IMG/VR virus record: IMGVR_UViG_3300017788_000020
Span: 565-64,564 of that record
Length of the DNA stretch: 64,000 nucleotides
Reading direction: 5' to 3' (one strand)
From: a virus
Taxonomy: Duplodnaviria > Caudoviricetes
In this document: piece after piece, positions 47,103-63,800 of the stretch
Position numbering within the stretch: the first letter of the stretch is position 1
How the letters are laid out: the number at the start of each line of letters is the position of its first letter
Notes under the pieces: generated by a model
Databases searched by the model: none
Told to the model about the DNA's origin: nothing
The model's input: the letters and a program-made list of their open reading frames with translations, nothing else
Position numbers and translations under genes: made by a program

Positions 47103-47708
47103 GTGCAACAAATTTTCACAGCGACAGGCGTGCCGCCTCGCGTGTACAGAGACCTGTTAACAAAAGAGTTCGGTGACGCGTGGTTAACCTGGCTACCTGA
47201 AACGCTTTATGCAGAAATAGAGCGTGTATGGCACGTGCAGCTATCAAGCGAGGTGGCCAATAAAATCAATGCTTTCCGTGTGTTTCTCACGACCGATCTG
47301 TTTTACACAGATGCCGCGGCGTTCGAGCACATTGTGCAGTCTATAAACGACGTTGTGATTGATCCAGAGTTGCTTAGCCTAAGCACACCTTCTGAGATTC
47401 TGTATGCGTTATATATGATAGGTCCTGTCGATGTGACCAAATTCGGGCGCGAGGTTGTGACGTATATACGGGTGTGCTGCGAGAATTTTGGCTTGTTGAA
47501 GTATCCCCCTTTACTTAAATTTGCGCAACCGGTATACGGTGCAGCAGAACTTAACGAAGCCTTACCTAAAATAAAACCTGCGCTGTTGCCCGGCGCCGAC
47601 GACGATATTGTTGTACAGCAGTCACGCAAGCTGTATCAAGTCATAGGGGATGTGGTGGATCGTATCGGGCGCTTCCGCAACGAAGTATTGGAGACAACTA
47701 ACGTATGA
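47103..47708 (+). CDS. conserved-looking head-associated protein
   Basis: FGDAWLTWLPETL; directly upstream of the portal. Confidence 0.55.
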   Translation: MQQIFTATGVPPRVYRDLLTKEFGDAWLTWLPETLYAEIERVWHVQLSSEVANKINAFRVFLTTDLFYTDAAAFEHIVQSINDVVIDPELLSLSTPSEILYALYMIGPVDVTKFGREVVTYIRVCCENFGLLKYPPLLKFAQPVYGAAELNEALPKIKPALLPGADDDIVVQQSRKLYQVIGDVVDRIGRFRNEVLETTNV

Positions 47709-49621
47709 TAGGGTCGAATAATCTGATTGGTGGTGGCGACGCCGTAGGCGGTATAGGCAGCTCCGGCGGTCCGCGGTCGCAAAACATGTATCCGCACCCG
47801 TTCTTTGATTTAAGTAATCAAGAGATACCCAGGACTGTTAAAGAGTTATTCAGGTGGTGCCTTTACCTGTATCTATCACACTCAGAGATTGCGCCCCTGA
47901 TCAACAAAAAGTGCTCCTATGTGATAACAGATATTCTGTACGACACCGAATCAAAAAAAGATCGCGATGCGTGGCAGAGTGTGTTGGAAGAAACGCTCGA
48001 TATCAAAGAATTTGAGCTTAAAATGTTGCTGGATTATGAGATTTTTGGCAATGCCTACTGCTCAATCTCTTTTCCGTTCGAGAGGCAACTGACGTGTAAG
48101 AAATGTTCGACTAACTTCTCAATTGAGGATCCTACGTTGGACTGGCACTACCGCGACCATACATTCGTAGGAAAATGCAACAAATGCGGTGAGCGGACAG
48201 AGTATGACGTACAAGACCGACCCATCAAGCGTAAAAAGTCTCTTAAACTTATACGATGGTTTCCTGAGTATATACAAGTAGTTCAGAACGAGATTACGGG
48301 TCACGCGCGCTATATTTACAAGATTCCTAGGTGGATGCGCAAAGGTATAGTTAACGCGGAAAACGACGAGAATAAATACCTTGTTGTGGACACACCGCTA
48401 GTGTTTTTACACGCCATCAAGCGCGGCGGCGACGTAGAGCTTGACAAAGACAACATATACCACATGCGTGTACCGAGCTGCTCGTATTACGATCAGGCAT
48501 ATGGTATACCGCCGATGTTGGCGGTATTCAAAGATGCTTGGTTATTCCAAGCGTATAGACGCGCACAAGAGGCGATCGCGATGGAACACGTATTGCCACT
48601 ACGTCTCCTGATCCCGCGACCTATATCTGGTGATCACTCGCCGCACCAGCACAACGATCTTGGCCAGTGGTCAAGCCGTATGCAGAACATCGTCAACAAG
48701 TGGCGCCGGGATCCGAACGCTATATTCACCGTACCATTCCCGGCCGAGGTTCAAAGTATCGGTGGGAATGCGCAGGCGCTCAACGTGCACAACGATATGG
48801 CACAGATTCGTCAACAAATCGCAGGCGGACTGGACATCCCTAGTGACATGATCTACGGCAATATGAGTTGGAGCGGCAGTAGCGTCACGTTGCGTATGTT
48901 AGAGAACACGTTCTTAGGCCGTATAACCCAGCTCGAAAAGCTGCTGAATAAGTTCATCATCCCTAGAGTAAAGGCCTGGGCAGCTTTGCCGGACATTACA
49001 ATCAGGCACAGAGACTTTAAGATGGCGGACGACGTTCAGCAGAAGCAAATCGCCATGACGCTTCGTCAGACAAATACGTTATCCGACCGCACGGTGATAC
49101 AAGAGCTCGGCTTTGACTACGCGACTGAGCAGAAATACAAGCGGGAAGAGGAGGAGACGCGTAACGCAACGCTTGCTCGACAGATGCTGGCGCAGACAGA
49201 CGCTCAAGGTAAGGCGCAGATTGCTATGGCGGCCTTTGAGGCGCAAGCACAGGCTGCACGTACTAAGGCCGCAGAAGAGGCGCAGCGCAAAGCAGCTCTG
49301 GAATCATACAAAGAGCTCGGAAGTCCGCAAGACCGGTCGAATATGGCGAACGTGGCCCAAGCTATCGGCTCGCCTATGCCAGAGCAGATTGGCGGCTCTC
49401 CTATATCATATAGCTCCGAGGTACTTGACAGCATGGCAGAGAATGTGCTAAAAGCGACGCCGCCGGATATGATTGCAGACATGACTATGCGCTTGCAAAA
49501 ATCAAACCCGCAAATTGCGGCAGCTATTGCGCGTATTCAGCGCCGCGGCGAAGAGGCGTCACGCACCGTACGCACGTTACCGGAGCAGAAGCCGCCGCGT
49601 AGTCCTAACGCAGGTATTTGA
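47705..49621 (+). CDS. portal protein with Zn-ribbon insertion
   Basis: LDYEIFGNAY, IYHMR...YGIPP, IAGGLDIP, coiled-coil tail; CKKC...CNKC insert. Confidence 0.7.
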   Translation: MIGSNNLIGGGDAVGGIGSSGGPRSQNMYPHPFFDLSNQEIPRTVKELFRWCLYLYLSHSEIAPLINKKCSYVITDILYDTESKKDRDAWQSVLEETLDIKEFELKMLLDYEIFGNAYCSISFPFERQLTCKKCSTNFSIEDPTLDWHYRDHTFVGKCNKCGERTEYDVQDRPIKRKKSLKLIRWFPEYIQVVQNEITGHARYIYKIPRWMRKGIVNAENDENKYLVVDTPLVFLHAIKRGGDVELDKDNIYHMRVPSCSYYDQAYGIPPMLAVFKDAWLFQAYRRAQEAIAMEHVLPLRLLIPRPISGDHSPHQHNDLGQWSSRMQNIVNKWRRDPNAIFTVPFPAEVQSIGGNAQALNVHNDMAQIRQQIAGGLDIPSDMIYGNMSWSGSSVTLRMLENTFLGRITQLEKLLNKFIIPRVKAWAALPDITIRHRDFKMADDVQQKQIAMTLRQTNTLSDRTVIQELGFDYATEQKYKREEEETRNATLARQMLAQTDAQGKAQIAMAAFEAQAQAARTKAAEEAQRKAALESYKELGSPQDRSNMANVAQAIGSPMPEQIGGSPISYSSEVLDSMAENVLKATPPDMIADMTMRLQKSNPQIAAAIARIQRRGEEASRTVRTLPEQKPPRSPNAGI

Positions 49622-49624
49622 GTC

Positions 49625-50002
49625 ATGGCAAACAACCGCATAACCAACGTCCTATCAAAGCAGGTGCTAGAGGGGATAAACTCCAGCATAGCTAGCCGAC
49701 CCGCGCTAGGCGCAGCAGCTGCGAAGTTCGTGGCGCGCGGTTTGGACGAACAGCTGCGCCGTAAACGCATCGTATTGCTTAACCTACATACGTCTCGTGA
49801 ATCAACCTTCTGGCAAATACTGCAAAACACTCCAGAACGTTTCCAGATCGTAAGCGAGAAAGAGTCTCACCAGCGAGGCGAATATGTAGTGCGTGTTATA
49901 TTTTACGAAATTGGCGAAGATTTGCCCATATATAAATCACAGGCTGCGCTTATCGCTGAATACACAGGTGCGCCACAAGAAACAGAGTTAGATGATGTCT
50001 AA
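49625..50002 (+). CDS. hypothetical protein
   Basis: Between portal and RNAP, overlapping the RNAP start. Confidence 0.6.
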   Translation: MANNRITNVLSKQVLEGINSSIASRPALGAAAAKFVARGLDEQLRRKRIVLLNLHTSRESTFWQILQNTPERFQIVSEKESHQRGEYVVRVIFYEIGEDLPIYKSQAALIAEYTGAPQETELDDV

Positions 50003-53000
50003 AGAGCTTCAACAACACATACAGTTGCTAGAAGAAGTTCGTCGTATTGTGGCGAACATGTTTCCGATAACTGCCCGCAACGGCGCCACGCTGACTGTAT
50101 CCAATCTTCGTTGGTCAGACGCAGGCCAGCATGTTATGGATAACATCACTGCCCAAAAGGAGGCTAAGTTGCGCGAGCGGTCCGTTGACAGTAAGCTGAC
50201 AGCGGATGTAGAACTAAAGGATGCGACAGGGACGATACTCGATAGCCGCAAAGGCTACTTCATACTGTCGATGCCGCACATCACGTCGCGTAATTCGTAT
50301 ATCGTTGACGGCAACGAAGTTCAGATAATCAATCAATTACGTCTTCGTCCAGGTGTTTACACGACCATAAAGGCCGGGGACACCGTGGAGGCGTATTTGA
50401 ACACGACCGCCGCCGGTACATACAAGTTACTGCTCGACAGGAAGACTGGTGTTATTCGCCTGAAGGTCGGTACAGATAAGAAAGTGCCTGTGTATTCTGT
50501 ATTACTTGCCCTGGGCGCATTACCGGGCGACTTACCAGACATATTCGGTGACCTGCTTGATGTGAATGAGAAAGCCGCGCGTATAGAGCCTGATACGCAA
50601 AAACTGTTGTTGGCTTTATGGCCTTACGCCAAAAATGGCTCTTTAATTGAGAACCAACTCGAGGCGCGTAAGTTCTTAGAATCTAAACCACTCGATCCGG
50701 CGGTCAACAAACTGACACTGGGTATTTCTGGTATTGACAAGATCGACAAGGCCGCGGTAGCCGCCGCCATACGCAGATGTATTTTTATATCGAAAGGTAT
50801 GGCAGACGAGGATGACATCGAGTCGCTCGCGTTCAAGTCGATTCACTCAATCGAGGATTTTATTCCAGAACGCCTGCGGCGCAAAGAAGCGGCAGTAAAG
50901 CGCATTGTCGCTTACCAGATGACACGCAAAGCGACTATACCGGCCGTACTACCATCGTCACTCTTTGATAACAATATCAAAGACTTTATGACAACATCTG
51001 AGTTTACCAGATTCTCAGACCAAAATAATCCGATTGATATGAACGCCGTCGCGTCAACCACCACGATCATGGGTGAGGGCGGTATACAAAGTACGCGTGC
51101 GGTCAGCGACGCCGTGCGCGCCGTACACGCCTCGCACTTCGGTGTGCTTGATCCGGTACATACCCCAGAAGGACCTAAGATCGGTATTACCGGACACCTT
51201 TCGCTGGGCGCGGAGAAAATTGGGAATACGCTTTTCCTCACAGTCTTTGATGCGCGCACAGGCGAGAAAAAGCGGATGTCCGTTGAAGCGCTTATGCCGT
51301 ATACGGTAGCTTTTGCTGACCAGTATACAAACATCGGTACCGGTACACCTAAGCTGAAGGATAAATACACGACAGTCAAGGCGCGTAAAAACACCAAACT
51401 GCTTGAGGTCAATCCTGCGGACGTGGATTACATATTCAACGATCCAGCAACCTTCTTCTCGTCGAGCACGTCCGTCATTCCGTTTGTTAACAGTAATAGC
51501 GCTAACCGCGTTCTGATGGGCGACAAACACATCGAACAGTCGGTGCAATTGGCTGATCCAGACAAGCCTTTGGTTTTACACAGACTGACTAAAGTCAACA
51601 AAGGCTATCTAGAGCTCTTAGGAGAGAACTTTCTTGTTAAAGCGCCTGTAGCCGGTACGGTGACGAAGATCACACCGGACACTGTTTTCATAAAAGAGGA
51701 CAAAGGTAAGACACACGCGGTAGCTATCCATAATAACTATCCGCTCAACTCTAAGACATTTTTGCACGATGAGCCTATTGTGACTGTAGGTGAGCAGGTC
51801 CGGGCCGGGCAAGCCTTGGTACGTAACAATTTCACCAAAGACAACACGCTCGCCCTCGGTAAAAACCTTCTCGTGGCTATGGTACCTTACAAAGGTTACA
51901 ACTTCGAGGACGGTACAGTCATCTCCTACAAAGCCGCACAAAAGCTCGCATCTGTGCACAAAAACGAGCACAGAGTGGAGAAAGAGGACGGCGTGGCTAT
52001 AGGGCTAGCGACGTACATTGCCCGATACCCACAAAATCTTGATAAGTTCCGCAAAGGCTTTAGAGATAACTACGACGAGAACGGTATTATAAAAAAAGGT
52101 ACGGTTGTTCACAAAGACGACATTCTTATACCTGCCGTAAAAGAAGTCACGCTAAGTAAAACTGAATTAGTTAATATACACAAAAAGCTGCTCTCGACCG
52201 CATATTCCGATATCTCGGAAACGTGGACAAAAGACGTTCCTGGCGAAGTTGTGGATGTCATCAATGAGCGGGGCTTTGTTAAAGTTGTTGTACGCAGCGT
52301 CGAGCCGGCCGTTGTAGGTGATAAGCTGTCCGCTTTTGCAGGAGCTAAAGGCATCATTACTAAGATTCTCGGACCTGACGAAGTCTATAAGGATGAGAAA
52401 GGTGCTGAGATTGATGTGTTGTTCAATTTCCTAGGTACCCTAGGTCGCGCCAATCCCGGCTTCATACTAGAAGCTGCTGCCGGTAAAGTCGCGCAAAAAA
52501 CAGGCAAGCCTTTCTATGTCGACAATTTCAACATGACGCACGAGAGCAATCTTGCGCATGTCCAAGAAGAACTCAAGAAGGCTGGAATAAGCGACGCCGA
52601 GACCATCACCAATCCGACAACCGGCCACAAGATGGAGAATGTGCTGGTCGGTCCGCTGCATACATTAAAGCTCAAGCACATGGTCGAGCATAAATTCTCG
52701 GCCCGCGGCGCAGTCGGTCTCCCGTATACGACGCTAGAGCAGCCTAAAAAAGAATCCGGCGAGAGTGCGCAACGTATTGCGCCCCTCGACATGTCGTCGC
52801 TGCTTTCTATGGGCGCTACAGCGTTTCTCAGCGACGCCTACGGCATCAAGTCGCAGAAAAACGATGATTACTGGTTAGCGCTACAGACTGGCCGCACGCT
52901 ACCTGCGCCGCAAACTCCTTACGTGGCAAATAAGTTTGTGACGATGATGCTTGGTGCAGGTATTAACCTAAACCAGACTGGCTCTAAACTAACCGCCACG

Positions 53001-56000
53001 CCTATGACTGATGAAGAGATTTTGCGTATCAGTCACGGGGAAATCAAAGAACCACACACGCTGAAATCGTCCTCTTTCCAACCCATGAAAGCGGGCTTGT
53101 TTGATGACGACTTGACGGGCGGTATAGGCGGTAATAAGTTCTCCCACATACGACTAGCAGAACCTATTATTAATCCGTTGATGGTGGAGGCCGTTGTGTC
53201 TGTGGGCGACTTTAACTCAGGTGTCGAGGTCGAACAGGTGCTCAACGGCACTAAATCAGTCACCGCAGACGGCCTAGTCGTCGACGGCGACGGCGGTGCG
53301 ACAGGTATCGAAGGTATCCGCACTGTCCTCAAAAAAGTGGATATAGCTAAGGCTATAGAAAAGACAGGTGACGCTGCCAAAAACGCCAAAGGCTCAGTAC
53401 TTAACAAACTTAACCGCCGCTTGCGTTACCTACGGGCACTCGAGTCGATGGGTATGCGACCAGAAAACGCGTACATAAATCAGCATGTTCCGGTTATTCC
53501 CCCGAAGTTCCGGCAGATCACGGAACGGACAGACGGGTCAGTATCTGTGGCGGACGTGAACCATCACTACAGAGATCTGTTAATCATCAACAATCAGCTA
53601 GAAGAGCTGAAGAATATCGGCGTAGACAAGAAACACACGGCTGCTCTATCTAGAGCATTGTATGACGGCGCTAGCGCGTTGGCTGGTTTAGGCGATTCCG
53701 TAACAAAAGGTAGAGAATACAAAGGCCTTTTGGAAGAGATAAACGGCGTTAAGGAATCTAAATACGGCTACTTCAAGAGTAAGCTACAGTCGCGTCCACA
53801 AGACCTGTCTGCGCGGTCGACTGTTATTCCAAACCCTAAATTGGATATGGACCACATTGGTATCCCTACCAATATGGCGCTCACCATCTACACACCTTTC
53901 GTCATAAAGCGCCTCGTACAAAACGGGTACGCGCCACTAGATGCACGCAAGATGGTAAGAGAGCAGTCTCACGAGGCAGTGAGAGCTTTGGAAGTAGAGA
54001 TGGAGGACCGGCCGGTACTTATGACCAGAGCGCCATCTCTACACAAATTCAACATGCTGAGCTTTAAGCCAACACTGATTAACGGCAAAGCGGTAGAGGT
54101 AAATCCCCTTATTGTAGGGGGCTATAACATGGACTTTAACGGCGATGCCGTCTGGCACTCATGCATATTTGCTCTAGAGGCTGAGAAAGCGGATGAATTC
54201 TATGATTTTGTGTTGACTAATAGCATGTTTAATGATAGATTGTGGACGAAAGAAGAATTGGCTTCTTTCTTACACAACACAAAAATGACAGCAAGATTTG
54301 ACGTGAAGCTTCCTTATATAGAAGGACACACAGTACACTGCATAGCGCTAGAAGATTTCCCGAGAGGGGAGCGTAGCCACTGTAGCATGGGTCAGTTTGG
54401 TATTATTGAGTGGTACCAAGCGCCGCCCGGTATTAAAGCTTTGGCGTACGATAACTTAAATCAAAAACTAGAGTGGCGACCTGTCACTTTCTACTCTGTT
54501 CACCACGGATGTGAGCGTGAGATCATTAACCTTGCATCAGGTCGTCAGATGTTCGCCGATGACGACCCTCGGGCGGTATTTGGTATTGAGAGAGGCACGT
54601 TAACCTTCACTAGAAACACTCCCTCTAATGCCGCTGAAAATCAGATGTTTGTTCCTCGTGTAGCTAATATGAACGTCACTAATTACGGAGATCAAACAGA
54701 GATACAAGTAGTGACCGATAAAACACGAAAAAATCCGTTACCTGAAACGCTTGCTTTAACAGCAGAACTAGGCTACTTAGTCGGTGTTATGGCCGGCGAC
54801 GGCTGGGTGTCTACTAATGACTCAATTAACATAGCAAGTATACGCCCAGCGATTCCTGCAAAATGTCAAGCAACTATAGAACAGTTGGCTGATAGAGTTG
54901 TCAAAGACACTGTCACAATATCTACTAAGTCCTTGGGAGAAAGTGTAAGACATACGTTTAGTGCTGCCGCTGTAGCAGATTTCTTAAAAGAGATGATCGG
55001 TTCTGGCGCTAAGAATAAGCACCTACCTGTGTGGTATTTGTCTGCCAACGAAGAATGCCGCAAAGGATTATTCGCCGGCTTGATGGACACTGATGGTTCT
55101 ATTTGCGTGGTGCAGGCTGTAGCTAAAGCGAAGCCTCAGCTACAGGCTAACTATACAAGCACAAGCTTCCGTTTAGCTCATGAAGTACTGCTGTTAGCTA
55201 AGAGTCTGGGTATTGACGGTCGTATCACACATTATAAGTCTTCTATGAAAGCGACCGATACGTGGGCAGCTTCTTTCTCCAATATGGACATCAAGCGTTG
55301 GGGCGGTAAGTACATGATGCATCCGGAGAAGCTTGAAAAACTCGCCTCTATAGAGGTAGATGAGACCTCGAACATTGCGGCACGGACTGACATAGTTCCC
55401 ATAAGCTTCGATTTAGCCAAGTATATTCAAAACAGCGTCAGTATGCCGAGGAACGCCCCGAAGGAGACGAAATCGTTGTATGTAACAATACAGAGGGCCG
55501 TCAAGCTCGGTAAACTTAGCCGCATGATAGCCAAGCGCGCAATATCTCTAATAACTGAAGAGACCTTACTTAAACATCCCGAAGGTGCGAAATGGTTACG
55601 TATTGTTGACGACACTTCAGTCAAATGGGACCAAGTCGCGTCTGTCGAGAAAACAGGCGTTTGCGAGACCGGATATGACCTGACAGTTCCGGGCTACGAA
55701 ACTTTCATGAACATAGAAGGGGTCATTCTTTCCAACACGGCAGGTATCCACGTACCGGTATCGGAAGAGGCTCGCCGTGAAGCGGTCGAGAAACTTATGC
55801 CGAGCCAGAACCTGATCTCTGTTCGTCACGAGTCCGCTATGCATACCCCCGGTAAAGAGACGGCACTCGGCATCTATTTGATGACAAATCCCAAAGGGGA
55901 GCCTACGGTTGTGCGCTCGCTGGACGATGCGGTCGCACAGCATGCACGGGGTAGTCTTAAAGTCAATGCGGCGATCCGTGTTGGCGATAAAGTGACGTGC

Positions 56001-58853
56001 GTAGGACAGAAACTGGTTGCAGACGTGTTCCCGGTATCTATGCGACCAGAGCTCATGGTCGTGGACGGCGACCTGCTTAACCAGTTGTGCTTGAAAGCCG
56101 CACGCACGTTACCTGCACGAGCCGCGGGCGAGATTATTAGCAGGCTGAAAGATCTTGGGAACCACTACGTCACAGAGATAGGCGCAGGCGTATCCTTGAA
56201 GGACCTGGAGTTCGACTACGAGAAACGGGATGCTGTACTGGATAAGTTACGCAAACGTGCCCCCATCGTAGGGTTCGACACCGCCGTGGAAGAGGCCGGT
56301 AGAGAGTTAGATGCGCTACTAGCGGCTGCGACTGATAACAGGTTTGTGGAAGCAGGCGTCACAAGTAAGGCCACAAGTAAGGGCGGTATGGTACGGCAGA
56401 TGATTGTCACACCCCTCGCTATTACGGACTCTAAAGGCGCGACAATTCCGCTTGTTGTCAATAAGTCGTACGCTGAGGGACAAGACCTGGGGTCGTACTT
56501 AGGGACCACGCCAGGCGCGCGACAAGGCCTTGTTGATAAAGGTATCTCTGTTGCTGATACTGGGTACTTAAGTAAGCTCCTAGTCAATGCTAACGCGACC
56601 AATAAGATCACAGTGGACGATTGCGGTACCGTAGACGGATTACTGTTGGATGTCGACGACAAGGAAGCACTTAATCGGTTCGGCGCTAAAGAACCTATAC
56701 GCAATGTAGTTATAACACCAGAAGTGGTTCGCAAACTTAAAGCCGCGGGCGAAAAACAAATACTTGCGCGATCGCCTCTTAAGTGTCGAGCACTCAGTGG
56801 TATGTGCGCAAAATGCGCCGGTGTGAACGAATATGGTGCGGCGTATAAGATTGGCGACAATGTCGGTATCACGGCCGCACAGGCTATTGGCGAACGTGCT
56901 ACGCAAGTAACACTTCAAAAGTTCCACTGCCTTGAGCGTACTACCATCTGCCTTGTGCGAAAAGGTGCTGAAATTTTCCACACAACACTTGGGCAACTAT
57001 TTGATGAGCATGAGACTCATCAAGAAGGTGATGAAGAGGTCGCCGAGGTTAGCGCCTATGAAGTGTGGGACCGCGGCGGCTGGACAAAAGTAAAGCGAGT
57101 ACTGCGTCACGCACAAGAGCCCGGAACAGAGATGGCCTTGATTAGATCTCGTACAGGACAGGCGGTTATTGCGCAGGATAACCACCCGCACATGTTATCA
57201 AAGGTCGCTGTTGCTTGTCCTACCTGCGCCACATGGCCTAAACGTATAAACGCGCGAGGTAGTCGTTACTACTGTCGTACATGTAAACACGGCTGGTCAG
57301 ATAAACCGGAAATGACTGTTGACTACAGCATGACGGCTAGTAGCGAGCTTGGTGACAAGACGCACGCGGCTTTGATTGACACGGGTCCGGTACCTACGCC
57401 GGCCACACCAATCATCCCCGATGGTTGGTTGGCTGGTATGTATATCGCCGAAGGCTCTCGCCTAGTCAGGGGCGGTTTGTACGAAGGCTTCTGTGTGTGT
57501 CAAAATGATGGTCCGATTAAAAGTCAGGTGTATGCGCGGCTAACTGACTGGCTACCTGACAGCAAAATCCAGCTATCTAAAACCGCTGTGCGTGTGTTGG
57601 AACCCGCGTTAGGTGAAAAGCTTACAAAGGTGCACGGTACCTATTGTCGAGATAAAGGGCTGCCTCCAGGTTGGAGCGGCTACCCATCCGTATGGTTGAG
57701 TCAGTTTGTAGCCGGTGTTATTGACGGCGATGGCACGCTTGTACGTAACCGTGACAGTCGCTGGACTACAGTACGCATAGACACCACTAGTTTCTTGTTA
57801 GCACAACAGCTTGTTCATATATTACGAACAGCCGACATCAAGGCGCGTGTTATAGTGTCGCCTTGGCGAAAACTAAGCTCGCATCAAGGATACGCGGTAC
57901 AGTTTGTGTATACAGAAAGAGCGCAGCAATTCTTAGGAAATGCCTGTACAAAATTAGTGGGTGTGGCTGCGAATCCTAAGAACAAAAAAGAAGATTATGG
58001 TCATGTCGTTGACTACGTAAAAATTGTACGCTATAGCGAGGCGCCTGCCGTATACGATATCGAAACAGAGACTGGAACCTACTTTGCTAATAGTTTCTGG
58101 ACACACAATACGGGGGGTGCTGTCGGCGGCAACGTCGTAGGTTTTGGACGTATTAAGCAACTGCTACATCTACCGCAGACAATGTCCGATAAGGCGGTTC
58201 TATCAGAGGAGACAGGTGTTGTACAAGCTATCGCACCGTCGCCGACGGGTGGCTGGCTTGTCACAGTTAATGGTGTCCGCCATTTCGTTGCACAGGAGTT
58301 AGGTCTAAAAATTAAGCAAGGCGACTCCGTTGTCGCGGGGCAGCAGATCAGTCTACGCGGCGTAGTGCAGCCTCATGAATTACTGGAGACGACCGGCGAC
58401 ATCGGGCTTGTACAGAATAAGATCGTCGACGATCTAAAGGGCGCGTACGGTAAGCAGAGAATTCACAGACGTATCTTTGAGACCGTAGTCAAGCCTATGA
58501 CAGACAAAGCCAGGGTTATTCACCCAGGCGACGCTGATAAGTTGTTTAACGTCTACGCTGGTGATACCTTACTCAGCAGCGTCATAGACGACTACAACAA
58601 GAAGCTTACGGCGAAAGGTCTGCGCCCCATTAAATCGGAAACAGCTTTGATGGGTATTGTGGCGATTCCGTTCCAGGACGAGGACTTTGTTGGTAGGTTG
58701 ACACACGAGCGTCTGAAAGACACGCTCAAGGGCGCGCCTGCGCTAAACCAGACGGTTGATATACAAGGCGACCACCCCGTGTCGCGGCTAGTCCTAAAGA
58801 ACTTTGGGCACGTAGACGACATAAAGAACGCGCCAAGAAGAAAATTATTCTAA
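49992..58853 (+). CDS. rpoBC: single-chain fused beta-beta' DNA-directed RNA polymerase with two inteins (~2029 aa if both splice)
   Basis: beta: HFGVLDPVHTPEG.KIG, GYNFEDG, GDKLS..GAKG, KLKHMVEHKFSAR; beta': HIRLAEP, VPVIPPKFR, RAPSLH, YNMDFNGD, TGYLSKLL, CGT..RSPLKC..CAKC, AQAIGERATQVTLQKFH/TGG. Confidence 0.95.
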   Translation: MMSKELQQHIQLLEEVRRIVANMFPITARNGATLTVSNLRWSDAGQHVMDNITAQKEAKLRERSVDSKLTADVELKDATGTILDSRKGYFILSMPHITSRNSYIVDGNEVQIINQLRLRPGVYTTIKAGDTVEAYLNTTAAGTYKLLLDRKTGVIRLKVGTDKKVPVYSVLLALGALPGDLPDIFGDLLDVNEKAARIEPDTQKLLLALWPYAKNGSLIENQLEARKFLESKPLDPAVNKLTLGISGIDKIDKAAVAAAIRRCIFISKGMADEDDIESLAFKSIHSIEDFIPERLRRKEAAVKRIVAYQMTRKATIPAVLPSSLFDNNIKDFMTTSEFTRFSDQNNPIDMNAVASTTTIMGEGGIQSTRAVSDAVRAVHASHFGVLDPVHTPEGPKIGITGHLSLGAEKIGNTLFLTVFDARTGEKKRMSVEALMPYTVAFADQYTNIGTGTPKLKDKYTTVKARKNTKLLEVNPADVDYIFNDPATFFSSSTSVIPFVNSNSANRVLMGDKHIEQSVQLADPDKPLVLHRLTKVNKGYLELLGENFLVKAPVAGTVTKITPDTVFIKEDKGKTHAVAIHNNYPLNSKTFLHDEPIVTVGEQVRAGQALVRNNFTKDNTLALGKNLLVAMVPYKGYNFEDGTVISYKAAQKLASVHKNEHRVEKEDGVAIGLATYIARYPQNLDKFRKGFRDNYDENGIIKKGTVVHKDDILIPAVKEVTLSKTELVNIHKKLLSTAYSDISETWTKDVPGEVVDVINERGFVKVVVRSVEPAVVGDKLSAFAGAKGIITKILGPDEVYKDEKGAEIDVLFNFLGTLGRANPGFILEAAAGKVAQKTGKPFYVDNFNMTHESNLAHVQEELKKAGISDAETITNPTTGHKMENVLVGPLHTLKLKHMVEHKFSARGAVGLPYTTLEQPKKESGESAQRIAPLDMSSLLSMGATAFLSDAYGIKSQKNDDYWLALQTGRTLPAPQTPYVANKFVTMMLGAGINLNQTGSKLTATPMTDEEILRISHGEIKEPHTLKSSSFQPMKAGLFDDDLTGGIGGNKFSHIRLAEPIINPLMVEAVVSVGDFNSGVEVEQVLNGTKSVTADGLVVDGDGGATGIEGIRTVLKKVDIAKAIEKTGDAAKNAKGSVLNKLNRRLRYLRALESMGMRPENAYINQHVPVIPPKFRQITERTDGSVSVADVNHHYRDLLIINNQLEELKNIGVDKKHTAALSRALYDGASALAGLGDSVTKGREYKGLLEEINGVKESKYGYFKSKLQSRPQDLSARSTVIPNPKLDMDHIGIPTNMALTIYTPFVIKRLVQNGYAPLDARKMVREQSHEAVRALEVEMEDRPVLMTRAPSLHKFNMLSFKPTLINGKAVEVNPLIVGGYNMDFNGDAVWHSCIFALEAEKADEFYDFVLTNSMFNDRLWTKEELASFLHNTKMTARFDVKLPYIEGHTVHCIALEDFPRGERSHCSMGQFGIIEWYQAPPGIKALAYDNLNQKLEWRPVTFYSVHHGCEREIINLASGRQMFADDDPRAVFGIERGTLTFTRNTPSNAAENQMFVPRVANMNVTNYGDQTEIQVVTDKTRKNPLPETLALTAELGYLVGVMAGDGWVSTNDSINIASIRPAIPAKCQATIEQLADRVVKDTVTISTKSLGESVRHTFSAAAVADFLKEMIGSGAKNKHLPVWYLSANEECRKGLFAGLMDTDGSICVVQAVAKAKPQLQANYTSTSFRLAHEVLLLAKSLGIDGRITHYKSSMKATDTWAASFSNMDIKRWGGKYMMHPEKLEKLASIEVDETSNIAARTDIVPISFDLAKYIQNSVSMPRNAPKETKSLYVTIQRAVKLGKLSRMIAKRAISLITEETLLKHPEGAKWLRIVDDTSVKWDQVASVEKTGVCETGYDLTVPGYETFMNIEGVILSNTAGIHVPVSEEARREAVEKLMPSQNLISVRHESAMHTPGKETALGIYLMTNPKGEPTVVRSLDDAVAQHARGSLKVNAAIRVGDKVTCVGQKLVADVFPVSMRPELMVVDGDLLNQLCLKAARTLPARAAGEIISRLKDLGNHYVTEIGAGVSLKDLEFDYEKRDAVLDKLRKRAPIVGFDTAVEEAGRELDALLAAATDNRFVEAGVTSKATSKGGMVRQMIVTPLAITDSKGATIPLVVNKSYAEGQDLGSYLGTTPGARQGLVDKGISVADTGYLSKLLVNANATNKITVDDCGTVDGLLLDVDDKEALNRFGAKEPIRNVVITPEVVRKLKAAGEKQILARSPLKCRALSGMCAKCAGVNEYGAAYKIGDNVGITAAQAIGERATQVTLQKFHCLERTTICLVRKGAEIFHTTLGQLFDEHETHQEGDEEVAEVSAYEVWDRGGWTKVKRVLRHAQEPGTEMALIRSRTGQAVIAQDNHPHMLSKVAVACPTCATWPKRINARGSRYYCRTCKHGWSDKPEMTVDYSMTASSELGDKTHAALIDTGPVPTPATPIIPDGWLAGMYIAEGSRLVRGGLYEGFCVCQNDGPIKSQVYARLTDWLPDSKIQLSKTAVRVLEPALGEKLTKVHGTYCRDKGLPPGWSGYPSVWLSQFVAGVIDGDGTLVRNRDSRWTTVRIDTTSFLLAQQLVHILRTADIKARVIVSPWRKLSSHQGYAVQFVYTERAQQFLGNACTKLVGVAANPKNKKEDYGHVVDYVKIVRYSEAPAVYDIETETGTYFANSFWTHNTGGAVGGNVVGFGRIKQLLHLPQTMSDKAVLSEETGVVQAIAPSPTGGWLVTVNGVRHFVAQELGLKIKQGDSVVAGQQISLRGVVQPHELLETTGDIGLVQNKIVDDLKGAYGKQRIHRRIFETVVKPMTDKARVIHPGDADKLFNVYAGDTLLSSVIDDYNKKLTAKGLRPIKSETALMGIVAIPFQDEDFVGRLTHERLKDTLKGAPALNQTVDIQGDHPVSRLVLKNFGHVDDIKNAPRRKLF
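54147..55736 (+). mobile_element. atypical intein 1 (530 aa) with LAGLIDADG homing endonuclease
   Basis: Interrupts DFNGD|TAGIHVP (equivalent to DFDGD-QMAVHVP); LVGVMAGDG and FAGLMDTDG motifs; block F/G KWDQVASVE..GYDLTVPGYETFMNIEGVILSN; first residue Ala. Confidence 0.85.
56928..58109 (+). mobile_element. canonical intein 2 (394 aa) with Zn ribbon and LAGLIDADG endonuclease
   Basis: KFH|CLERTT...QDNHPH...LAGMYIAEG...VAGVIDGDG...VYDIETETGTYFANSFWTHN|TGG. Confidence 0.92.
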
Positions 58854-63724: not shown

Positions 63725-63800
63725 TGGTGGGCGATGAGGGATTTGAACCCCCGACTCCCTCGGTGTAAACGAGGTACTCTAACCGCTGAGTTAATCGCCC
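63725..63800 (-). tRNA. tRNA-Val(TAC)
   Basis: 76 nt GGGCGATTAACTCAGCGG...CCTCG-TTTACAC-CGAGG...GGTTCAAATCC...CGCCCACCA. Confidence 0.95.

Follow-up and report, generated by a model that had tools for sequence, protein, structure and literature searches.

The window examined here, 64,000 nucleotides of Caudoviricetes DNA (positions 565 to 64,564 of IMG/VR virus record IMGVR_UViG_3300017788_000020), carries on its plus strand an open reading frame (ORF) of 2953 amino acids (49992-58853) for a fused beta-beta' RNA polymerase (RNAP) with two predicted inteins. The record is a 64.6-kb viral contig from fresh water and is about 33% complete. Five Pfam domains of RNAP scored above their cut-offs in the ORF (Rpb2_6, 174.5 bits; Rpb1_2, 64.4; Rpb1_5, 64.1; Rpb2_3, 43.8; Rpb1_1, 40.2). 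Because most of the 111 homologues retrieved were single chains of about 2000-2050 amino acids without inserts, we take the window ORF to be a fused beta-beta' enzyme carrying two inserts. The intein-less homologue P0006 was co-linear with the window polymerase minus its inserts (aligned segments 2-1399 and 1897-2950; junction ...GD/TAGIHVPVS, the slash marking a junction here and below). A preliminary description of this DNA had called the polymerase otherwise intact, and the single ORF with its five domains agrees with that.

The catalytic Mg loop, NMDFNGD (amino acids 1379-1385; 54126-54146, plus strand), is the counterpart of the NADFDGD loop of Escherichia coli beta' (Asp460, Asp462 and Asp464). 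It has the same position and domain order, its N-x-D-F-x-G-D motif is likewise followed by x-x-G/A-x-H-V-P, and the profile of the sequence after the first insert (the C-extein) aligned to E. coli beta' from residue 466. Unlike in the E. coli loop, the second aspartate (Asp) of the triad is asparagine (Asn). Positions 54123-54146 of the window read TAT AAC ATG GAC TTT AAC GGC GAT (Y N M D F N G D), and the AAC codon at 54138-54140 (plus strand), in frame with the 2953-residue ORF, encodes Asn 1383 at extein position -3 from the first intein. The Asn that the preliminary description had placed at the second triad Asp was thus borne out; the interval given there for the loop, 54123 to 54146, began one codon early and took in a Tyr. 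In the alignment this column holds the second Asp of D-x-D-G-D in each homologue read, so that as encoded the window has two of the three Asp of a two-barrel RNAP. The triad is described as universally conserved (10.1101/2024.06.20.599782; PMC5467207).

The segment 53400-54900, including the AAC codon, was identical in contigs of two public sequencing runs, X1 and X2, from two studies (word depth about 11 and about 10). These are contigs rather than raw reads, and either may be the source of the record, so they are not independent; contigs of runs X3 and X4 spanned only parts of the segment and are neutral as evidence. With support coming from contigs, both full carriers possibly being the source, and with an incomplete metagenome contig as the record itself, the Asn could stem from a defective genome, or from an error of sequencing or assembly at 54138. 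Two assemblies nevertheless agree at a depth of about 10, the ORF is intact, and the same change recurs in at least four intein lineages from many samples, as described below. We consider an artefact or a dead allele very unlikely: the Asn in the Mg loop is a genuine, inherited extein state.

The intein beside the loop

Directly after the loop lies an insert of 530 amino acids (intein 1; amino acids 1386-1915; 54147-55736, plus strand). It is missing from 86 homologues and is followed by Thr +1 (55737-55739, plus strand), the first residue of the C-extein TAGIHVPVS, which is co-linear with DFDGD/TAGIHVPVS of P0006. A LAGLIDADG homing-endonuclease motif region was found at 55056-55265 (plus strand; insert residues 304-373), where LAGLIDADG_3 (PF14528) scored 29 bits against a cut-off of 22.5; the Pfam match to a C-terminal splicing motif was under its cut-off. 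The C-terminal junction, ...GVILSN/T, has the terminal Asn followed by Ser, Thr or Cys that is looked for in an intein. Position 1 is Ala rather than Cys, Ser or Thr; relatives of intein 1 have Q, A, E, D, L and others at this position and mostly Gln at position 2, which is Val in the window. At block B the window has ADDD in place of T-x-x-H (T-D-D-D in its family), facing TEHH in a canonical clade of inteins from the same site, and the residue before the terminal Asn is Ser. On this alignment intein 1 is therefore without a position-1 nucleophile, a block B His and a penultimate His.

The inteins at the loop site were all homologous to each other, and the profile of the intein 1 family matched that of the canonical same-site clade over 445 columns (hhalign probability 100%, E 3e-41). 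An AlphaFold2 model of intein 1 built on 26 family members (predicted local distance difference test, pLDDT, 79.8; predicted template modelling score 0.70) had its best PDB matches in 7qss (TliVMA), 1dq3 (PI-PfuI) and 2cw7 (PI-PkoII), with Foldseek E values of 2e-19 to 3e-16, and the profile match to 2cw7 had an E value of 7.5e-13. In the N-extein flank of the model pLDDT was below 50, which leaves the contacts of the Asn at -3 unreadable. Intein 1 resembles these three inteins in its predicted fold, its LAGLIDADG motif and its terminal Asn followed by Thr, and differs from them in Ala1, in Asp for the block B His and in Ser for the penultimate His. Sequence and model together indicate that the insert belongs to an unusual family of inteins, for which splicing is predicted. 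The adjoining atypical intein of the preliminary description is therefore well founded: the insert is absent from close homologues, has the predicted fold of a homing-endonuclease intein and starts with Ala. At E <= 1e-3 the family comprised 855 representatives in a library clustered at 50% identity.

Like class 2 and class 3 inteins, intein 1 has no Cys, Ser or Thr at position 1. Class 2 inteins combine Ala1 with Cys +1, as in Mja KlbA. Intein 1 has Ala1 but Thr +1, unlike class 2, and position 4 of its block F, which we take from the Mtu RecA numbering, is Asp (GYDLTV), unlike the Trp-Cys-Thr triplet of class 3; it thus fits neither class. Class 3 inteins use the block F Cys, for example in MP-Be DnaB (PMC2807308).

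Many proteins of the intein 1 family (P0123, P0142, P0178, P0183 and others) begin only at a conserved Met some 58 residues inside the intein, a pattern suggesting either that the genes are split or that the endonuclease part has its own internal start. The counterpart in the window lies at about 54315-54320 (amino acid about 1443, KMTARFDVKLPY), where the frame is continuous.

Asparagine in the triad and the intein lineages

Two sets of proteins were read at the loop. The first comprised the window and the 111 matches of a search with the N-extein, which is blind to inteins; the loop of one protein, P0012, was unreadable. All 86 proteins with no insert at the site had three Asp. Among the 25 with an insert, six had Asn in the triad: the window and P0046 as DFNGD, and P0005, P0010, P0044 and P0047 as DFDGN. 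Fisher's test on 6/24 versus 0/83 gave p 7e-5, or 3e-4 when the window was left out. The second set, the best 150 matches of a search with the intein of the window, added 148 proteins. Their loops could be read in 128, the remaining 20 being fragments that start inside the intein, and comprised nine DFNGD, one NFDGD (P0122) and 118 with three Asp. In these loops the three triad positions held Asp or Asn and no third residue, and the middle residue of the loop varied among F, Y, H, N, L, M, V, I, T and C. P0122, in which the first triad Asp is Asn, reads GGFAS-NFDGD/LQRG...VLSN/T beside an intein of the window's own family.

Pattern scans of larger collections gave a similar picture. Among the matches listed, each G[YF]NxDFNGD loop in RNAP context (7/7 in the metagenome and 5/5 in the viral collection) was followed by a Ser1 intein ending in Thr-His-Asn or Thr-Arg-Asn, and an intein-less polymerase with DFNGD was found in neither collection. 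A tighter DNA pattern recovered DFDGN/Cys1...Trp-Asp/Thr in three viral contigs (L277, L281 and L282) that represent one sequence. The pattern scan of viral contigs for Asn at the first triad Asp gave no loci. Loose DNA patterns mostly hit by chance, with RNAP context in 1/11 loci, 0/13 loci and 4/135 matches among those listed. A scan of viral contigs with GGYNMDFxGD yielded two loci, each with DFDGD and neither closely related to the window, and a search of shorter proteins returned four matches, each D-x-D-G-D. Of the 24 Asn cases 18 were DFNGD, as were at least four of the six origins. As a control, [FY]NADFNGD[QE]M was scanned against one genome for each of 185,579 species, a base that counts all genomes rather than matches to the canonical pattern; it matched one intact bacterial rpoC, in a metagenome-assembled genome (MAG), and one stop-ridden fragment.

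Among the phage-type homologues, then, Asn replaces a triad Asp only beside an intein that lies directly after the loop, and it does so as a recurrent class. The preliminary description had asked whether DFNGD co-occurs only with the intein of the window. The association with inteins stands, since Asn was confined to intein-bearing alleles, and the restriction to this intein falls: within its own family 118 of the 128 readable loops have three Asp, and a different clade, with Ser1...HN inteins, always has DFNGD.

The intact rpoC of the control scan (L288; MAG Salinibacterium sp., contig of 5284 bases) is an intein-less bacterial gene reading AAFNADFNGDQMAVHLPLS. Its DFNGD may be a MAG error or a real variant.

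Natural pairs show the same association at close range. P0047, with an intein and DFDGN, shares 388 of 400 N-extein residues with P0048, which has no intein and reads DFDGD. The window and P0005 have in common 357 of 400 and 372 of 400 residues on the two sides of the site (exteins about 90% identical), and their 40-residue flanks are identical on both sides except for DFNGD versus DFDGN; their inteins differ. The preliminary description would have given up its idea had every close homologue read DFDGD whatever the intein, which is not the case: in the closest, P0005, DFDGN stands beside another intein, and P0006 combines DFDGD with a site free of inteins. A 151-base contig of run X4 (another study, depth 2) matches 54083-54146 with one mismatch, its place unreported, in 64 bases. 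It leaves the window sequence directly after 54146, continuing into a different insert whose start resembles LSN-type inteins. As the window, P0005 and this contig all carry different inserts, intein turnover at the loop site is fast.

We compared the distribution of Asn on trees of the inteins and of the N-exteins. On the intein tree (119 rows) the Asn state needed six changes; the mean for shuffled states was 20.2, and none of 200 shuffles was as low. Asn was uniform in three clades: Ser1..HN (7/7 DFNGD), Cys1..[YW]D (4/4 DFDGN) and one that lies inside the LSN family (7/7 DFNGD). The singletons were the window, P0122, which adjoins it, and P0232. On the N-extein tree (201 rows) the Asn state needed 19 changes. 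Within an RNAP subclade of 25 rows, the seven DFNGD rows correspond to one intein clade with support 99.8; on the extein tree the same rows needed six changes, and their monophyly was rejected (approximately unbiased test, p 0.0002). A search with the Ser1..HN intein, made blind to the loop, found DFNGD in 3/3 proteins and in 6/6 viral loci, three of which were the seeds' own contigs. The trees omit L268 and L273, which repeat L214 and P0268, and inserts outside 380-720 amino acids.

The Asn state is thus inherited with the intein lineage rather than with the polymerase lineage. Several points weigh against this reading. The clade used in the test of monophyly was named after the tree had been seen, the trees were made with FastTree (the large ones) or with quick IQ-TREE runs, and rows from Asn-pattern scans were retained, so that Asn rows are over-represented although the contrast between the trees is unaffected. 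A sign test on independent pairs was weak (four to seven pairs one way, none the other; median p 0.06). The window is itself a singleton on its intein branch, its nearest relatives being 41-47% identical and all DFDGD, so that its Asn may be a private, recent mutation. With these points counted, we still hold it highly probable that the Asn is real and linked to the intein.

Two ideas about intein 1 and its relatives were rejected. A chimera with a Ser1..HN N-terminus was not supported: there was no N-terminal match, and over its whole length intein 1 was 21-25% identical to the Ser1..HN clade and 37% to LSN-type inteins. Intein columns that co-vary with the Asn were also set aside: two were common to all eight DFNGD rows, which is about the chance level given three origins.

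Linkage of this kind could arise if the Asn were a passenger that brings no benefit, riding with the intein by co-conversion or, in the window, being a recent private mutation, while intein drive keeps an impaired polymerase in circulation. The Asn does track the intein, and its codon lies 9 bases from the junction; homing is known to co-convert flanking DNA (e.g. PMC2790892, PMC2330249). The fast turnover of inteins at the site, and the position of the window as the sole DFNGD on its intein branch, also fit a passenger. A costly Asn should, however, revert, AAY to GAY being one step; yet three deep intein clades keep Asn throughout, across many different extein backgrounds and along branches 0.3-1.4 changes per site long. 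The replacement is moreover always Asn and never another residue, and the exteins are intact over about 2000 amino acids. As Asn is retained in three deep clades, is the only replacement seen and is a single transition away from reversion, selection is favoured over mere passage, and we think a passenger origin unlikely.

The encoded asparagine and the finished enzyme

How an enzyme with an encoded Asn could function was considered at the level of the message, of the metal site and of the finished protein. The preliminary description had listed A-to-I editing of AAC to a GAC-like codon, to which site-specific misreading may be added. AAC and GAC are one A/G apart, which makes editing formally possible. 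The surroundings of the codon would, however, seem unlike a bacterial editing context, the sole tRNA of the window is a tRNA-Val, and a change in the message would leave the linkage to inteins unexplained. No editing is needed, because several deep intein clades pass on the Asn codon stably in their DNA; the proposal is left without support, and we regard it as extremely unlikely.

At the metal site, the spliced polymerase may simply keep its Asn, the side-chain oxygen still ligating the tightly bound Mg, with the cost borne only in cases where a less acidic junction benefits the intein. Such tolerance would account for Asn at each of the three positions, Asn-Thr and Asn-Phe contexts included, and it accords with the placement of Asn at the second or third triad Asp in 23 of 24 cases, the first Asp being Asn only in P0122. 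The second Mg contacts only the first triad Asp, Asp460, in the account available (10.1101/2024.06.20.599782), and the other two would then serve the tightly bound Mg alone. The DFDGN enzymes are not spare copies, since in G002, a phage record of 178 kb that is complete (CheckV 100%, terminal repeats), the only beta' catalytic locus reads DFDGN. Between P0047 and P0048, which are 97% identical, there is no room for compensating changes. Tolerance is harder to reconcile with the lack of Asn in all 86 intein-less homologues and with the single intact rpoC of the control scan, and it leaves the excess of the Asn-Gly position unexplained. Sosunov et al., in 2003 and 2005, reportedly found single Asp substitutions in E. 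coli RNAP to be strongly defective, which also counts against it. As the triple Asp-to-Asn mutant of YonO, a related enzyme, was inactive (PMC5467207), an unconverted Asn is expected to be costly. We rate tolerance as rather unlikely.

The remaining reading, which takes up the deamidation proposed in the preliminary description, is that the Asn acts as a pro-residue: a neutral triad would let the intein splice, and deamidation (spontaneous at Asn-Gly, Mg-assisted or intein-assisted) would then complete the active site. The Asn codon would have been carried to the site by intein homing through co-conversion, selected there afterwards, or both. Counted from the scissile bond, the three Asp form an acidic cluster at -1, -3 and -5, and premature N-terminal cleavage is promoted by Asp at -1; the simplest benefit would be that loss of one carboxylate from this metal-binding triad helps the intein to splice cleanly. 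Asn is the sole residue able to turn into Asp. Asn-Gly is a rapidly deamidating pair that can also act as a slow protein timer, and DFNGD, the Asn-Gly form, is by far the commonest Asn position. In the window the spliced enzyme would be born as DFNGD-TAGIH (junction ...DF[N/D]GD-TAGIHVPVSEEAR) and would regain its Asp by deamidation. The first steps of splicing are known to depend on the extein residues that flank the N-terminal junction (PMC4031507), and the pressure invoked at the loop junction is of the same kind as in such extein-dependent splicing.

Time for deamidation would be available if the enzyme is made late and stored in the virion, as is probable. Salmonella phage Arash is the nearest cultured relative (about 30% identity, with the same gene order after the portal gene), and its homologous RNAP proteins rank among the most abundant proteins of purified particles (PMC10585845), so a stored enzyme would have time to convert. 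The window enzyme thus resembles Asn-Gly deamidation timers in having Asn-Gly in a flexible loop of a probably virion-stored protein. It differs from them in that the product Asp would be a catalytic metal ligand, and in being known here as an encoded dipeptide alone. In the Cys1...Asp clade, a mirror pattern (Asn at -1 with an intein ending in Asp, against Asp at -1 with an intein ending in Asn) would, judging from the sequences, allow a transfer of the amide from extein to intein.

A number of observations count against conversion. After splicing, DFDGN gives Asn-Thr and NFDGD gives Asn-Phe, both slow contexts for spontaneous deamidation, so that Asn-Gly chemistry is not the general answer; the Asn-Gly argument of the preliminary description fits DFNGD and fails for these two. 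Asp-Gly occurs in every RNAP loop, whose folded state must suppress the succinimide, which argues against fast conversion, and isoaspartate would be a major by-product. Nor is the Asn needed by the window's intein family in general, 118 of its 128 readable loops having three Asp; the Asn of the window could have arisen recently or have been left behind by a previous intein at the site. We therefore propose only tentatively, and by a narrow margin over tolerance, that the full chain, from linkage through to deamidation, operates at the window. That the Asn is a pro-residue in a two-step, possibly timed maturation of a virion-stored RNAP is a more doubtful proposition still.

Neighbouring features and significance

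A second predicted intein (intein 2; 394 amino acids, amino acids 2313-2706; 56928-58109, plus strand) interrupts the trigger-loop region at KFH/TGG. From its junctions and Pfam matches it would be canonical (Cys1...His-Asn/Thr, LAGLIDADG); the Pfam run used 56946-58130, offset by 6-7 residues. It carries two CxxC pairs, is missing from the 90%-identical relative P0005, and lies outside the question of the Asn.

Two ORFs of 638 and 125 amino acids lie directly upstream of the polymerase (47705-50002), in an order that matches the portal gene and the small gene before the polymerase of Arash. PHROGs gave no match for either ORF, and almost no neighbouring gene was named. In Vibrio phages D69 and D181 and in Arash (L001, L002 and L003) the fused gene ends some 90 residues past DYDGD and a separate gene encodes the remainder of beta'; D181 additionally has a homing-endonuclease gene that breaks the beta part. 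The single tRNA gene of the window, for tRNA-Val (anticodon TAC), lies at 63725-63800 on the minus strand.

Our literature search found no described case of a catalytic residue of a host enzyme being replaced in intein-bearing alleles, and full-text searching turned up nothing published on inteins at this site or on a triad Asn next to an intein in RNAP. The linkage bears on why the loop site hosts so many unusual inteins, and matched pairs such as P0047 and P0048, or the window and P0005, make it directly testable. If the Asn is a pro-residue, precise loss of the intein would be lethal. The triad is treated as invariant, yet natural and apparently viable phages encode Asn in it, and only beside a selfish insert. 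An enzyme that works with Asn would mean that the triad rule is softer than thought, and conversion of the translated Asn to Asp would mean that splicing precedes the completion of a catalytic residue. Both readings would be new, and under either one an intein has altered active-site codons in the gene that hosts it.

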